DNA from: an uncultured Oscillospiraceae bacterium
Lineage (GTDB): Bacteria; Bacillota; Clostridia; Oscillospirales; Oscillospiraceae
Length of the DNA stretch: 64,000 nucleotides
NCBI GenBank assembly: GCA_944385415.1
Contig: CALWXC010000008.1
Location: 36,446-100,445, forward strand
Direction: 5' to 3'
Shown: piece by piece, positions 4,092 to 42,543 of the stretch
Numbering within the stretch: position 1 is the stretch's first letter
Layout of the letters: each line of letters starts with the position of its first letter
Made by a program: the position numbers and the translations under genes
The notes under the pieces: model-generated
The model's input: only the letters and a program-made list of their open reading frames with translations
The model's database searches: none
Told to the model about the DNA's origin: nothing

Positions 4092-6527
4092 ATGAACGAT
4101 ATCATCCTGTCTGAGCGGCTGCCGGTGCTGGCGCTGCGCGGACTGTGTGTATTTCCCAAAATGCTGGTCCACTTTGACGTGGGCCGCGAAAAGTCCATCC
4201 GGGCCGTGGACGAGGCCATGCGGACCAACCAGGAGATTTTCCTGGTTGCCCAAAAGAACGTGGCCACCGACGAGCCGGGTATGGACGACCTCTACGAGAT
4301 CGGCACCGTGGCCCATATCCGCCAGGTCTTGAAGCTGCCCGGCGACACGGTGCGCATTCTGGTGGAGGGCGAATACCGGGCCCATGTGACCCAGTGGATT
4401 CAGGAGGAGCCCTTTTTCCGGGGCCGGGTGGATCTGCTGCCCGACGGCAAGTACAACCCCGACGCCGTCCGCAGCGAAGCGCTGCTGCGCCAGTGCCTGC
4501 AGCTGTTTGACCAGTTCCTGGAGCTGACGCCCAAGTCGGTCCAGGAGGGGCTCCATCAGGTGTTTGCCTCGGAGGATTTGAGCTATGTGGCGGACTTTGC
4601 CGCCCAGAACGCCTCTATTTCCTACAGCGACAAGCAGCGGGTTCTGGAACAGCTGGTCCCCACCAAGCGGGCCGCCGTCATCAGCGCCATGCTGGCCAAG
4701 GAAATCGAAGTCCTGCGGCTGGAAAACGAGCTCCAGGAGAAGGTCCAGGAGAGCGTCAACCGCAGTCAGAAGGAATACTATATCCGGGAGCAGATGAAGG
4801 TCCTGCGGCGGGAGCTGGGTGACGATGAGGACAGCGAGATTCTCGAGTACGAGGAACGCATCGAGGCCCTCAAGCTGCCGGAAGAGGTGGACAAGAAGCT
4901 CCACAAGGAGGTCCAGCGGCTGGCCCGTCAGCCCGGCGGCTCTTCGGAGGCCGCCGTCATCCGCAACTATCTGGACATCTGCCTGGAGCTGCCCTGGAAC
5001 GAGCGTACCAAGGAGCGGGTGGACGTGAAGGCGGCCAAAAAGCTGCTGGACCACGACCATTTCGGCCTGGATAAGGTGAAGGAGCGGGTTCTGGAGGTGC
5101 TGGCCGTCAAGAAGATGGCCCCGGAGCTGCCGGGACAGATCATCTGTCTGGTGGGCCCCCCCGGCACCGGTAAAACGTCCATCGCCATGTCCATCGCCAA
5201 GAGCCTGAACCGGAAGCTGGCCCGGATTTCCCTGGGCGGCGTCCACGACGAAGCCGACATCCGCGGCCACCGGAAAACGTATATCGGCGCCATGCCGGGC
5301 CGCATTATCAACGGCATTTTGCAGGCCGGTACCCGCAATCCGCTGATGCTCCTGGACGAGATCGACAAGATGGGCGCTGATTACAAGGGCGACCCGTCGG
5401 CGGCGCTGCTGGAGGTCCTGGACAGCGAGCAGAACGGCACGTTCCGGGACCATTATATTGAGCTGCCCTTCGATCTGTCGGAGTGCATGTTCATCACCAC
5501 GGCCAACACCCTGGATACGGTGCCCCGGCCGCTGCTGGACCGTATGGAGGTCATCGAGCTCAGCTCCTACACCGACGAGGAAAAGCTGCGCATTGCCAAG
5601 GACCATCTGCTGCCCAAGGTCATGGCCCGTCACGGCCTGACCAAGCAGCAGCTGCGGGTCACCGACGAGGCCATCCGGGAGACCATCACCTGCTACACCC
5701 GGGAATCCGGCGTCCGGAACCTGGAACGGCAGATGGCTGCCATCTGCCGCAAGGCCGACATGCGATTTGTCTCCGATCACGCTCCCAAGCGCATCACCGT
5801 GACCGGCTCCAATCTGGAGGAATTTCTCGGTGTCCGCCGGTATCTGCCCGATGAAAAGCCCGCCACCGACCAGGTGGGTCTGGTGACGGGTCTGGCCTGG
5901 ACGTCCGTTGGCGGTGAGACGCTGGAGGTGGAGGTCAACGTGGTGGATGGCACCGGTAAGCTGGAGCTTACCGGCAACCTGGGCGACGTCATGAAAGAGT
6001 CGGCCCACGCCGCCATGAGCTATATCCGGTCCCGTGCCGTCAAGTTTGGCATTGCGCCGGATTTCTACCAGACCAAGGATATCCACGTCCATTTCCCCGA
6101 GGGCGCGGTTCCCAAGGACGGTCCTTCGGCGGGCATTACTGTCTGTACGGCCATGGTGTCGGCCCTGACCGGAGCCACGGTCCGGCGGGACATTGCCATG
6201 ACCGGAGAGATTTCCATCCGGGGCCGGGTTCTGGCCATCGGCGGATTGAAGGAGAAAACCATGGCGGCATTGCGCCACGGCGTGAAAACCGTCATCATCC
6301 CCGCCGCCAACGAGAAGGATTTGGAAGAAATCGACCAGACGGTGCGCAAGGCCCTGAACTTTATCACCGTCCGCCATGTGGACGCCGTCATTGAGGCGGC
6401 GCTGGATTTTGGCCCCTGCCAGAAGAACGACGTTCCCACAGAGCCGGAACCGGAACCCCAGCCCGCCAAGGAGCTGCCCCTGCCGGTGCCGGAAACTGGC
6501 GGCGACCGGGCCGGCCTGCGCCAATGA
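4092..6527 (+). CDS. lon: Lon protease
   Basis: N-terminal LPVLALRG domain, GPPGTGKT, PKDGPSAG (catalytic Ser), IGGLKEK. Confidence 0.98.
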   Translation: MNDIILSERLPVLALRGLCVFPKMLVHFDVGREKSIRAVDEAMRTNQEIFLVAQKNVATDEPGMDDLYEIGTVAHIRQVLKLPGDTVRILVEGEYRAHVTQWIQEEPFFRGRVDLLPDGKYNPDAVRSEALLRQCLQLFDQFLELTPKSVQEGLHQVFASEDLSYVADFAAQNASISYSDKQRVLEQLVPTKRAAVISAMLAKEIEVLRLENELQEKVQESVNRSQKEYYIREQMKVLRRELGDDEDSEILEYEERIEALKLPEEVDKKLHKEVQRLARQPGGSSEAAVIRNYLDICLELPWNERTKERVDVKAAKKLLDHDHFGLDKVKERVLEVLAVKKMAPELPGQIICLVGPPGTGKTSIAMSIAKSLNRKLARISLGGVHDEADIRGHRKTYIGAMPGRIINGILQAGTRNPLMLLDEIDKMGADYKGDPSAALLEVLDSEQNGTFRDHYIELPFDLSECMFITTANTLDTVPRPLLDRMEVIELSSYTDEEKLRIAKDHLLPKVMARHGLTKQQLRVTDEAIRETITCYTRESGVRNLERQMAAICRKADMRFVSDHAPKRITVTGSNLEEFLGVRRYLPDEKPATDQVGLVTGLAWTSVGGETLEVEVNVVDGTGKLELTGNLGDVMKESAHAAMSYIRSRAVKFGIAPDFYQTKDIHVHFPEGAVPKDGPSAGITVCTAMVSALTGATVRRDIAMTGEISIRGRVLAIGGLKEKTMAALRHGVKTVIIPAANEKDLEEIDQTVRKALNFITVRHVDAVIEAALDFGPCQKNDVPTEPEPEPQPAKELPLPVPETGGDRAGLRQ

Positions 6528-39860: not shown

Positions 39861-41051
39861 ATGAAGCTACTGATCTGCAATGTGGGCAGCACGTCCCTCA
39901 AATACCAGCTCTTCGACATGGACAACGGCGAACAGGTTCTGGCCAGCGGCGGCGCCGAACGGGTCGGCACCGAGAAAAGCGAATTCTATTGGAAAAACCT
40001 TGTGAACGGCACCGAGGGCCGGGAATCGAACCACTTTCCCACCCATAAGGAAGCCATCAGCCGGATGCTGGAGGCGCTGCTGGATGGCGTTCTTGCCAAG
40101 CTGGAGGACCTGGGCTGTGTGGGCTTCAAGGTGGTCCACGCCAAAGGCGTTTCCGGCGTCCAATATCTGACGGAGGACGTTCTGGAGGCCATGGCCGCGT
40201 TCAACACCGTGGCCCCGGCCCACAATCCCCCCTATATTGCCGCCATCCGGCAGTTCCGGGAGCTGCTGCCCCATACGCCCCTCATCGGTTCCTTTGAGAC
40301 GGCGTTCCATCAGACGCTGCCCCCCAAAGCCTATCTCTATTCCATTCCGGCGGAATTGGCCCGGAAGGAGGGTATCCGCCGATACGGCTTCCACGGCGCG
40401 TCCCTGGAATATCTGTCCACCTGGGCGGCGAAGGAGCTGGGCCGTACCAATTGCAAGCTCATCTGCTGCCACCTGGGCGGCAGCAGCTCCATCTGTGCCG
40501 TGGAAAACGGGAAAAGCGTGGACACCAATCTGGGCATTGGCCTGCAATGCGGCGTGATGCACAACAACCGCATCGGCGATATGGACCCCTATGTGATTTT
40601 CCATCTGGTGGAAGCCTGCGGCATGGAGCTGAGCGAGGTCAAAACCATGCTCCAGAAGCAGAGCGGTTTTCTCGGAATGTCCGGCGGCGTCTCCGGCGAT
40701 CTGCGGGACGTGGAGGAGGCGGCAGCCGCCGGCAATGTGGATTGCCGCAACGCATTGGACAGCTATTGCTATAACATTAAAAAATATATCGGCGCGTATA
40801 CGGCGGCCATGGGCGGCGTGGATGCCATTGTGTTCGGCGGCGGTATCGGTCGTAACGGTAAGACGGTCCGGGCCGGGGCGTTGGGGAATCTCCAGTGTTT
40901 GGGCATCCATCTGGACCCGGCCAAGAATGAAACGGCTGTGGGCGGACAGGATATCTCTGTGGACGGCAGCCCGGTGCGGATTTATGTGGTGGATACCAAC
41001 GAGGAAATCATCGTGGCCCGTAAAGCCAAAGCACTGCTGGAATCCCGCTAA
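39861..41051 (+). CDS. Acetate/propionate kinase family protein, divergent paralogue
   Basis: CNVGSTSLKY, APAHNP, RRYGFHG, HLG, DLRD, TNEE; but GFKVVH and FETAFH replace GHRVVH and FDTAFH. Confidence 0.85.
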   Translation: MKLLICNVGSTSLKYQLFDMDNGEQVLASGGAERVGTEKSEFYWKNLVNGTEGRESNHFPTHKEAISRMLEALLDGVLAKLEDLGCVGFKVVHAKGVSGVQYLTEDVLEAMAAFNTVAPAHNPPYIAAIRQFRELLPHTPLIGSFETAFHQTLPPKAYLYSIPAELARKEGIRRYGFHGASLEYLSTWAAKELGRTNCKLICCHLGGSSSICAVENGKSVDTNLGIGLQCGVMHNNRIGDMDPYVIFHLVEACGMELSEVKTMLQKQSGFLGMSGGVSGDLRDVEEAAAAGNVDCRNALDSYCYNIKKYIGAYTAAMGGVDAIVFGGGIGRNGKTVRAGALGNLQCLGIHLDPAKNETAVGGQDISVDGSPVRIYVVDTNEEIIVARKAKALLESR

Positions 41052-41054
41052 ATA

Positions 41055-41092
41055 CAAGGGCGTGTTGCAAAATTCATTGCAACACGCCCTTG
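41055..41092. terminator. Palindrome between the convergent kinase and larE genes
   Basis: CAAGGGCGTGTTGCAA-aattca-TTGCAACACGCCCTTG, 16-bp perfect arms. Confidence 0.7.
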
Positions 41093-41145: not shown

Positions 41146-42327
41146 TTAAAGATGCAACGTCTTTCGGACCTCTGCTAAGGTACAATTCTGCTCCATGGCC
41201 CGCGCTGCCAGGTCGTCAAATTCCGCCTTTTCCTTGGCGATTCCATCGCCGCCGGCACATTTGACCCGGATGCCGTCCCGCTGCGTCACGGTACGGTGCA
41301 GCATCGTCCGTCCACAGTCCCGCCGCCGGACCCCCAGGGTTGTGGTATGGCGCAGCATCAGCCGCGTAAACTCTTCGACCCGCTGGACAGGGCACAAACA
41401 CGTCAGCAGCACCGCGGGCCGGTTCTTTTTCATATAGATGGGAGCCGTCCACACATCCAGCGCCCCGGCGTCCAGCAGCCGCGACGACGCAAAGGCGATG
41501 TCTTCTCCAGTCATATCGTCCAGATTGCATTGCAGCTCCGCCACCGCGTCATGCAGGAAACTGTCCGCAATTTGTACCGATGATTGCCGGGGCGTCAAGT
41601 CCAGAGACACCGTCCCCACCAGAGGCGACAGCGTTTCCACCAGTGTTTCCCGTTGGGAAAGGGCCCGGAACAGCTGCGGTTCCGTCAGTTCCAGACGGCA
41701 GCCCTCTGCCGTCAGCCGCACCCGGAAGTCGGAAAAGCCCAGCGCCGTCACCGCCGCCTCGGCACGGGCCACCCGGTCCAGGGCCGCCGCCGTAATGGGC
41801 GTATGGGTGGGGATACGGGTGGCCAGACAGGCAGCGGCGGGCTTGTCCCAGGTGGGCAGACCGGCTTCCCGGGACAGCCGCCGAAGCTCTGGTTTTGTCA
41901 GACCGCAGAGCCGCAGCGGCGACAGGACCCCCAATTCCTGCAATGCCTGCCAGCCGGGCCGGTCGTCCACATCGTCGGAAGCGTTGGTACCCTCCAGCAC
42001 GACGCCGCAGCCGTCGGCGGCAGCCTGGGAAAGAATGGCGGTGAAAATAGCCTTTTTACAGAAGTAGCAGCGCCGGGGCCCGTTGGCGGCCACACCGTCC
42101 TGGGCCAGCGCGTCCAGACGGATCACCCGCAGAGGGACCGAAAGGGACTCCGCCAGCTGTTGGGCGTCTGCATCTTCGGCGTCGGTCTGAAACGAGGTTT
42201 TGACATAGTAGGCCGTGGGCTGTGCGCCCCAGCGGACGGCGCTCCACAGCAGAAACGCCGAGTCGGCGCCGCCGGAAAAGGCAACGGCGGGGCGGGGATG
42301 GGCGGAAAAGAAGTCGCGCAGGTCCAT
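41146..42327 (-). CDS. larE: Fusion: LarE-family sulfur transferase plus LarC C-terminal (LarC2-like) domain
   Basis: PP-loop AFSGGADS, RCYFCK, EGTNASDDVDDRPG, WDKPAAACLATRIP, GFSDFRVR; then CNLDDMTGE, DVWTAPIYMKKNRPA, TTTLGVR, KAEFDD. RBS AGGAGG; promoter TTGCGC-17-TATGAT at 42387-42359. Confidence 0.85.
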   Translation of the reverse strand: MDLRDFFSAHPRPAVAFSGGADSAFLLWSAVRWGAQPTAYYVKTSFQTDAEDADAQQLAESLSVPLRVIRLDALAQDGVAANGPRRCYFCKKAIFTAILSQAAADGCGVVLEGTNASDDVDDRPGWQALQELGVLSPLRLCGLTKPELRRLSREAGLPTWDKPAAACLATRIPTHTPITAAALDRVARAEAAVTALGFSDFRVRLTAEGCRLELTEPQLFRALSQRETLVETLSPLVGTVSLDLTPRQSSVQIADSFLHDAVAELQCNLDDMTGEDIAFASSRLLDAGALDVWTAPIYMKKNRPAVLLTCLCPVQRVEEFTRLMLRHTTTLGVRRRDCGRTMLHRTVTQRDGIRVKCAGGDGIAKEKAEFDDLAARAMEQNCTLAEVRKTLHL

Positions 42328-42515
42328 GGGGAATCCTCCTGAAATTGAAGTTACCGCCATCATACCACGACAAAGACCACAGCGCAAGACAGGGAAAAGT
42401 TATCAAAACCACAGTTTGTCAACGGAACTTCTTCCATTTAAAGCTAAAAAAACAGAATAAAACGCTTGGAAATTGTATACATTCCACAAGACCGGCGGGA
42501 ATTTAGCGATAGTCC

Positions 42516-42543
42516 TTGACGCAACTGGGAGAACTGCTATAAT
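42516..42543 (+). promoter_or_regulatory. SigA promoter of the atp operon
   Basis: TTGACG-16bp-TATAAT with TG extension. Confidence 0.75.

Follow-up and report, generated by a model that had tools for sequence, protein, structure and literature searches.

What can a polypeptide that joins a LarE to the C-terminal half of LarC contribute to a biosynthetic pathway when the remaining genes of that pathway are nowhere near it? This question is raised by a gene on the minus strand of a 64,000-nucleotide stretch of DNA (the window) from an uncultured Oscillospiraceae bacterium (contig CALWXC010000008.1, assembly GCA_944385415.1), where positions 41146-42327 encode a protein referred to here as the LarE~LarC2 fusion. 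We favor the view, with a probability of about three in four, that this bifunctional protein forms one of the two modules of a re-wired biosynthesis of the nickel-pincer nucleotide (NPN), or nickel-pincer mononucleotide (NPMN), cofactor, the other module being a larB-larC1 gene pair on contig 24 of the same genome. The features of the fusion gene are the following.

41146..42327, minus strand: larE~larC2 fusion gene (open reading frame, NCBIfam and Pfam profiles; AlphaFold2 mean pLDDT 90.8).
41590..42327, minus strand: LarE domain, residues 1-246, assigned as a PP-loop ATP pyrophosphatase and sulfur insertase (TIGR00268, 5UDQ/6B2O, Foldseek).
42259..42276, minus strand: PP-loop SGGADS, residues 18-23, aligned with SGGIDS of the L. 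plantarum LarE (LarE_Lp) and invariant in 23 fusions.
42058..42069, minus strand: C87-Y-F-C90, the CxxC of the [4Fe-4S]-type LarE motif (alignment; motif according to PMC9283937).
41827..41829, minus strand: C167 in AACLATR, predicted third cluster-ligand cysteine, one residue past Cys176 of LarE_Lp.
41551..41589, minus strand: interdomain linker, residues 247-259 (alignment columns 250-270; pLDDT 66 at residues 251-260).
41149..41550, minus strand: LarC2 domain, residues 260-393, the CTP-binding half of LarC (NF052512, PF01969, 6BWO).

The gene is a single open reading frame of 393 codons plus stop, running from an ATG at 42327 to the stop codon at 41146-41148, as a first-pass annotation made from the letters alone had described it. 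The NCBIfam model of LarE, TIGR00268, scores 226.9 bits on residues 3-246 (cut-off 150), and the NCBIfam model of LarC2, NF052512 (nickel_LarC2), scores 127.3 bits on residues 262-374 (cut-off 50), where it is matched along its whole length (profile 1-118 of 118). The Pfam model of the whole LarC protein, PF01969, aligns with the fusion at profile positions 235-374 of 375 only, so that the His-rich LarC1 part is absent from the protein. The division proposed in the first-pass annotation, in which some 250 residues of LarE with CYFC and a third cysteine are followed by a short linker and by the C-terminal half of LarC without its His-rich region, is therefore confirmed in all its parts. Judged by these profiles, the fusion does not count as a LarC, being without LarC1 and matching the family over part of its length, and each of its halves is classed as an ordinary family member, a LarE and a LarC2 domain, respectively.

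In comparison with the PDB, the N-terminal half resembles LarE_Lp (5UDQ/6B2O, E about 1e-28), and the C-terminal half resembles the L. plantarum LarC2 (6BWO, E 3e-20) as well as the M. thermoacetica LarC (12BI; LarC_Mt). An AlphaFold2 model of the monomer, built on 23 fusion sequences, reached a mean pLDDT of 90.8, the sole low block being residues 251-260 of the linker (pLDDT 66); its pTM of 0.63 is as expected for two freely moving domains, and Foldseek placed the N-terminal domain of the model on LarE with a TM score of about 0.8. The linker comprises about 12 residues, its sequence and length vary between fusions, and stand-alone LarE relatives stop at 247-251 aa, matching the LarE boundary within the fusion.

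The motifs of both halves are well preserved: SGGADS, C87, C90 and C167 are invariant across the 23 aligned fusions. In LarE_Lp, Trp and Ala occupy the CxxC positions, and the sacrificial Cys176 aligns one residue before C167 of the fusion. In the T. maritima enzyme (LarE_Tm), the third cysteine stands one residue away from the position of Cys176 in LarE_Lp (PMC9283937). Because the CxxC motif and the cysteine shift together equal the LarE_Tm pattern, the LarE half is, by its sequence, most likely of the cluster-dependent, non-sacrificial type, and the word "sacrificial" in the NCBIfam name probably does not apply to LarE proteins of the CxxC...C type. The arginines of the FRVR motif align with R212 and R214 of LarE_Lp, which bind the substrate phosphate. 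Three blocks of the LarC2 half, NLDDMTGE, MKKNRPA and HTTTLGVR, correspond to NLDDQTGE, MKKDRPA and ETTTIGVR of 6BWO and are likewise invariant among fusions; we take these motifs to hold the residues that contact CTP in that structure.

The genome to which the window belongs (G000) is a 2.63-Mb draft with a completeness of 96%. None of LarA, LarB and LarC1 is encoded within the 64-kb window, as had been noted at the outset, and LarB and LarC1 are found in this genome on contig 24 only. PF01969 matches the genome in two places, the fusion gene and positions 6357-7103 of contig 24 (profile 1-244), the latter being an open reading frame of 244 aa that encodes a His-rich, LarC1-only protein (TIGR00299.2, "nickel_LarC1", 197 bits, cut-off 90) with a sequence that includes HGHQDAHHHHHH. 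Directly upstream lies larB (NF033503, 282 bits, cut-off 175), which overlaps larC1 by ATGA and is translationally coupled to it, and nothing LarC2-like was found downstream of larC1 on contig 24. In alignment, this LarC1 retains D15, E104, H108, H116, H118, E119, D124, D128, H160 and E187 of LarC_Mt, residues at which substitutions lowered the activity of that enzyme and in several cases abolished it (PMC13510736); from its sequence, the contig-24 LarC1 looks functional. Whole-genome tblastn returned exactly one each of LarE, LarC2, LarC1 and LarB. The NPN set LarB, LarE and LarC is encoded completely, with the fusion supplying the sole LarE and the sole LarC2. In a near-identical relative, larB-larC1 is directly preceded, on its own strand, by genes for a 140-aa regulator of the AsnC type and a 107-aa DUF1622 protein, and the corresponding region here is 4777-5549, plus strand, of contig 24 (locus L006); these two genes may belong to the larB-larC1 operon.

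The same architecture was found in about 55 clusters of homologues at 90% identity (387-408 aa, from 95% down to 41% identity to the fusion), which were drawn from NCBI, ENA, JGI and Logan assemblies and whose member names carry almost no taxonomy. At 50% identity the fusion occurs in six clusters (P0016, P0052, P0056, P0148, P0152 and P0160) among 1.84 billion representatives; for scale, the same set contains 1,207 LarE-like matches at E<=1e-30. The survey of spread that the first-pass annotation had suggested therefore describes an architecture that is rare, with 6 of more than 1,200 clusters, but recurrent. In a survey of 201 genomes from this family, LarC was present in 84, almost always at full length, and a LarC2-only match in a frame of about 420 aa is confined to the genus of the window (G000, G171 and G063). 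Among the matches listed for 399 Clostridia genomes, 137 genomes have LarC, about 13 of them as adjacent separate larC1 and larC2 genes, and the fusion type appears in G000 only.

The congener G171 carries an ortholog of the fusion at 93-95% identity together with larB-larC1, and the layout of one larB-larC1 unit and one larE~larC2 unit recurs in several lineages. Comparison of the two orthologs by the Nei-Gojobori method gave a dN/dS of 0.128 over the whole gene, with 0.17 in the LarE half and 0.07 in the LarC2 half (dS 0.30), and the linker is under purifying selection as well. Full-text searching, which left subscription journals largely uncovered, returned no paper that describes or tests a LarE-LarC2 fusion, in line with the first-pass annotation's remark that it knew of no characterization. 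Sequence databases already contain such fusions under the automatic names "nickel insertion protein" or "LarE", and NCBIfam models LarC1 and LarC2 separately. What is new here is a LarC naturally dissected at its linker; the chemistry itself is not new.

In the mechanism that we propose, LarB, encoded in the larB-larC1 module on contig 24, would make P2CMN (the mononucleotide of pyridinium-3,5-biscarboxylic acid) from NaAD (nicotinic acid adenine dinucleotide), and the [4Fe-4S]-type LarE domain of the fusion would convert P2CMN into its dithio product, P2TMN. The LarC2 domain, tethered to LarE by the linker of about 12 residues, would then use CTP to turn P2TMN into the CMPylated intermediate P2TCD, so that product might be channelled from the first domain to the second. 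P2TCD would be passed in trans to LarC1, which would act as the free-standing nickel-binding and nickel-inserting half of LarC, with insertion of nickel and release of CMP. The last steps follow the current model of LarC, in which LarC2 with CTP CMPylates P2TMN to P2TCD, and LarC1 then receives this intermediate, inserts nickel and releases CMP (PMC13510736). The first-pass annotation had offered, as one of two options, a channelling enzyme that works with a separately encoded LarC1, and this option gains support from a single larC1 coupled to a single larB in a genome whose only LarC2 lies in the fusion. Since no covalent link joins LarC1 to LarC2 here, the hand-over would require either a non-covalent complex or a diffusing intermediate.

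LarC_Mt has a hexameric LarC2 core that carries LarC1 on its N-terminus via a 13-residue linker (PMC13510736). The crystal of LarE_Lp contains six chains per asymmetric unit. LarE_Lp is described as a hexamer, which would suit the hexameric core of LarC2. Moreover, triple-domain fusions of LarE with LarC1 and LarC2 exist, so LarE and LarC would be expected to act together; this constitutes independent evidence of the Rosetta-stone type.

Several observations weigh against the two-module pathway. Deletion, shortening, stiffening or replacement of the C1-C2 linker of LarC_Mt left less than 10% of its activity (PMC13510736), and because of this effect a LarC1 acting in trans is not guaranteed to work. 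Two further genomes, G063 (same genus, 90% complete) and G600 (which encodes P0148 at locus L122), have the fusion, and LarB and LarC1 were undetected in them. In G000 itself, the LarA model NF033504 gave no match at E<=1 in a genome that is 96% complete, the only match to Lar_N being a weak one (25 bits) to a DUF362 + Fer4 protein; a protein of the ornithine cyclodeaminase (OCD) family is absent from the genome, and the genome yielded no supported NPN-using enzyme.

A rival reading holds that the fusion is a repurposed, self-sufficient module, which independently of LarC1 would thiocarboxylate and cytidylylate on the way to a product other than NPMN (a dinucleotide-type or a nickel-free cofactor, for example) or would salvage an imported intermediate. 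Because LarB and LarC1 are missing from two of the four searchable fusion genomes, which is more than expected, a LarC1-independent role retains a small share of the probability. In addition to G063 and G600, this reading can point to the fact that the fusion gene adjoins larB or larC1 in none of the six contexts that were read, to the lack of LarA in the genome, and to a dinucleotide variant of the cofactor, NPAD, that is cited as known in PMC13524815. On the other hand, an intact and complementary larB-larC1 pair is present both in this genome and in G171, the fusion provides the only LarE and LarC2, which LarB and LarC1 would otherwise lack, and both halves score at equivalog level as LarE and LarC2. 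G063 and G600, moreover, are draft metagenome-assembled genomes (MAGs), in which the loss of one contig suffices to remove a small larB-larC1 unit. We consider this repurposing unlikely: the idea, which was the second option of the first-pass annotation, is not needed to explain the present genome, although the two genomes without LarB and LarC1 leave some room for it.

A variant in which both roles coexist appears equally doubtful. Here, LarE~LarC2 would be a self-contained enzyme of two steps, thiocarboxylation followed by cytidylylation, that in some organisms acts independently of LarB and LarC1 to make or salvage a pincer-type product other than NPMN, and that in genomes such as the present one also provides LarE and LarC2 to a LarC1 serving as an independent nickel insertase. 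If this were true, the covalent link between LarC1 and LarC2 would be dispensable in nature.

Candidates for an enzyme that would use the cofactor were considered as well. The only aldo-keto reductase (AKR) of the genome (contig 2, 173081-174175, plus strand; L097:1369-2466) combines an AKR barrel with a C-terminal 2x[4Fe-4S] part, and its best PDB match is NphT (9YEB), an NPMN-dependent aldo-keto reductase reported in 2026 (PMC13524815). A His and a Lys of this AKR align with the nickel-ligand His144 and the tethering Lys200 of NphT, positions that are taken by Phe/Leu and Phe/Ser in the canonical AKRs ranking next. Of the 201 family genomes, 70 carry an ortholog, without enrichment for LarC (32 of the 70, against a base rate of 84/201), and the orthologs of LarC-minus genomes retain both the His and the Lys. 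The motif thus has no diagnostic value here, and the NphT-like AKR is unsupported as a client. The DUF362 + 2x[4Fe-4S] protein (contig 2, 57100-58224, minus strand; L003:955-2079), whose DUF362 domain belongs to the LarA Pfam clan, was rejected as well, its ortholog being present in 68 genomes of which 31 have LarC, with no association. A second larB-larC1 pair of G171 (75% and 47% identity) stands directly behind MFS-SDR-AKR+Fer4 genes and beside an integrase (L099, contig 30, 1-6000, minus strand). The AKR of this second cluster is of another subfamily (21% identity) and has no counterpart in the window's genome, and the cluster, likewise absent there, is a candidate for a mobile unit that brings its own NPN client.

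A less favorable interpretation of the same genome is that the pathway is decaying: the fusion would be a by-product of rearrangement, its LarC2 half would be vestigial or serve as an oligomerization scaffold, and no cofactor would be made. The lack of a known NPN client in the genome and the division of the operon over two loci would fit such decay, which nonetheless strikes us as very improbable given that the lowest dN/dS (0.07) falls in the very LarC2 half that should be degenerating. Across 23 fusions that diverge to 41% identity, there is no variation in the nucleotide-binding motifs held in common with 6BWO, the contig-24 LarC1 retains every residue found to be essential in LarC_Mt, and the layout has been maintained across several lineages. 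The last possibility, that an assembly or gene-calling error hides a stop or frameshift at about 41550-41590 between two separate genes, recalls a close relative in which larE and larC2 truly are separate, 16 nt apart, but it is untenable on the sequences at hand and of negligible probability, because the same frame is kept open in many independent assemblies (about 55 clusters from four sources, G171 and six 50%-identity clusters) and the linker is under purifying selection.

How the two-module layout arose can be approached through related loci. The search for these was patterned on the LarE half and returned mostly stand-alone LarE operons, and it was used as a reference for the ancestral gene order, not as a survey of fusions. 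In Flavonifractor, Pseudoflavonifractor capillosus, Dysosmobacter and Gemmiger, larE-larB-larC forms a single operon in which LarC1 and LarC2 are encoded by one gene. We infer that the ancestral order would have been larE-larB-larC1-larC2, as in these related Oscillospiraceae, and that the inner larB-larC1 segment moved out, a single step that would have brought larE next to larC2 and produced both modules at once; loss of the larE stop codon would then have yielded the fusion.

Three kinds of observations fit this relocation. Just 16 nt behind the gene of P0062, a stand-alone LarE of 247 aa, comes a LarC2-only gene of 150 aa, and in the trees of both domains this unfused pair nests within the main fusion clade, as sister to the fusion P0025. 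LarC1-only proteins from other lineages (242-251 aa, 53-98% identity to the contig-24 protein) are always encoded behind larB with a 4-nt overlap, with neither larE nor larC2 nearby. One of these larB-larC1 contigs shares its ENA sample with the contig that bears the unfused larE and larC2. In the trees of both domains the fused state must have changed at least twice, P0054, P0056 and P0057 as well as P0052 standing apart from the main clade, but the backbone is weakly supported, and the fusion may have arisen once or several times. Two apparent further split cases were discarded: in G071 a normal larE-larB-larC operon is broken by the contig end, and in G055, a MAG that is 73% complete, larB-larC1-larE is present and no LarC2 was found.

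The expression signals and the immediate surroundings of the fusion gene comprise the following features.

42335..42340, minus strand: Shine-Dalgarno sequence AGGAGG, 7 nt before the ATG, read from the sequence.
42355..42395, minus strand: candidate promoter TTGCGC-17-TGgTATGAT with TG extension, found by eye only.
41055..41092, no strand assigned: 17-bp hairpin between the acetate-kinase-like gene and larE~larC2 (-35.2 kcal/mol, z -8.55).
42516-42543, plus strand: near-consensus sigma-70 promoter of the atp operon, TTGACG-16-TATAAT with TG extension, 11/12 matches (consensus scan).

The fusion gene is convergent with the acetate-kinase-family gene and divergent from the atp operon, and from this layout it is read as monocistronic. 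For the same reason it requires a promoter of its own, which should lie within 42341-42500. The first-pass annotation had credited the gene with its own promoter: the layout and the candidate seen by eye speak for this statement, whereas no minus-strand sigma-70 site for the fusion gene emerged from the consensus scan. The hairpin at 41055..41092, which the terminator scan missed as it lacks a clean U-run, is likely a bidirectional terminator. The convergent neighbor, at 39861-41051 of the window on the plus strand, belongs to the acetate-kinase family (PF00871, 361 bits), and the unfused larE and larC2 pair (L093) likewise has an acetate kinase gene at a distance of about 3 kb. Proline-synthesis genes stand beside Lar modules in two other loci: the 3' end of a Lachnospiraceae fusion has a 4-nt overlap with a P5C-reductase gene (L087:9212-10006), and proC-proA-proB is convergent to a larB-larC1 pair (L134:3017-5870). 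An ornithine cyclodeaminase that depends on NPAD is cited as known in PMC13524815, and the recurrence of proline genes may be due to chance.

The formation of the nickel-carbon bond by LarC is an open question. In the cryo-EM study of LarC_Mt from 2026, CTP activation is assigned to LarC2 and nickel insertion to LarC1, at sites more than 25 Å apart (PMC13510736), and the fusion bears directly on the route of the intermediate between these two halves. In this bacterium and in several other lineages, LarC is cut in nature at the very linker whose alteration nearly abolishes the activity of LarC_Mt, and the resulting arrangement is kept under purifying selection. The LarE~LarC2 protein and its separate LarC1 therefore offer a natural system in which the channelling of P2TMN, the in-trans hand-over of the CMPylated intermediate and the role of each LarC half can be addressed. 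The genome would also add to the gut anaerobes that appear, from their genes, to make a nickel-pincer cofactor without LarA.

Compared with the characterized LarE proteins, the fusion is like the [4Fe-4S]-dependent LarE_Tm (PMC9283937) in its PP-loop SGGxDS and its CxxC...C pattern, its predicted fold matches LarE (TM about 0.8), and it agrees with LarE_Lp (5UDQ) in the FRVR arginines but not in CxxC; it differs from stand-alone LarE proteins by the added C-terminal LarC2 domain. LarE is joined to LarC domains in other proteins as well, namely the LarC1-LarC2-LarE fusions P0138, P0150 and P0205 (665-764 aa) and the LarE-LarC1-LarC2 fusion P0256 (688 aa), but all of these retain LarC1 in the chain, unlike LarE~LarC2. 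In P0140 and P0156 (about 530-550 aa), LarE stands behind an N-terminal part of about 280 aa to which no family was assigned. The LarC2 half shares NLDDxTGE, MKKxRP and TTTxGVR with the L. plantarum LarC2 (6BWO), but in L. plantarum LarC1 and LarC2 are adjacent and connected by a programmed frameshift, whereas here the two halves are separate polypeptides encoded on separate contigs. The His cluster and acidic pocket of LarC_Mt are retained by the contig-24 LarC1. The 13-residue linker of LarC_Mt compares with one of about 12 residues in the fusion, attached to the same N-terminal point of LarC2, and it is LarE that takes the place of LarC1 at this position.

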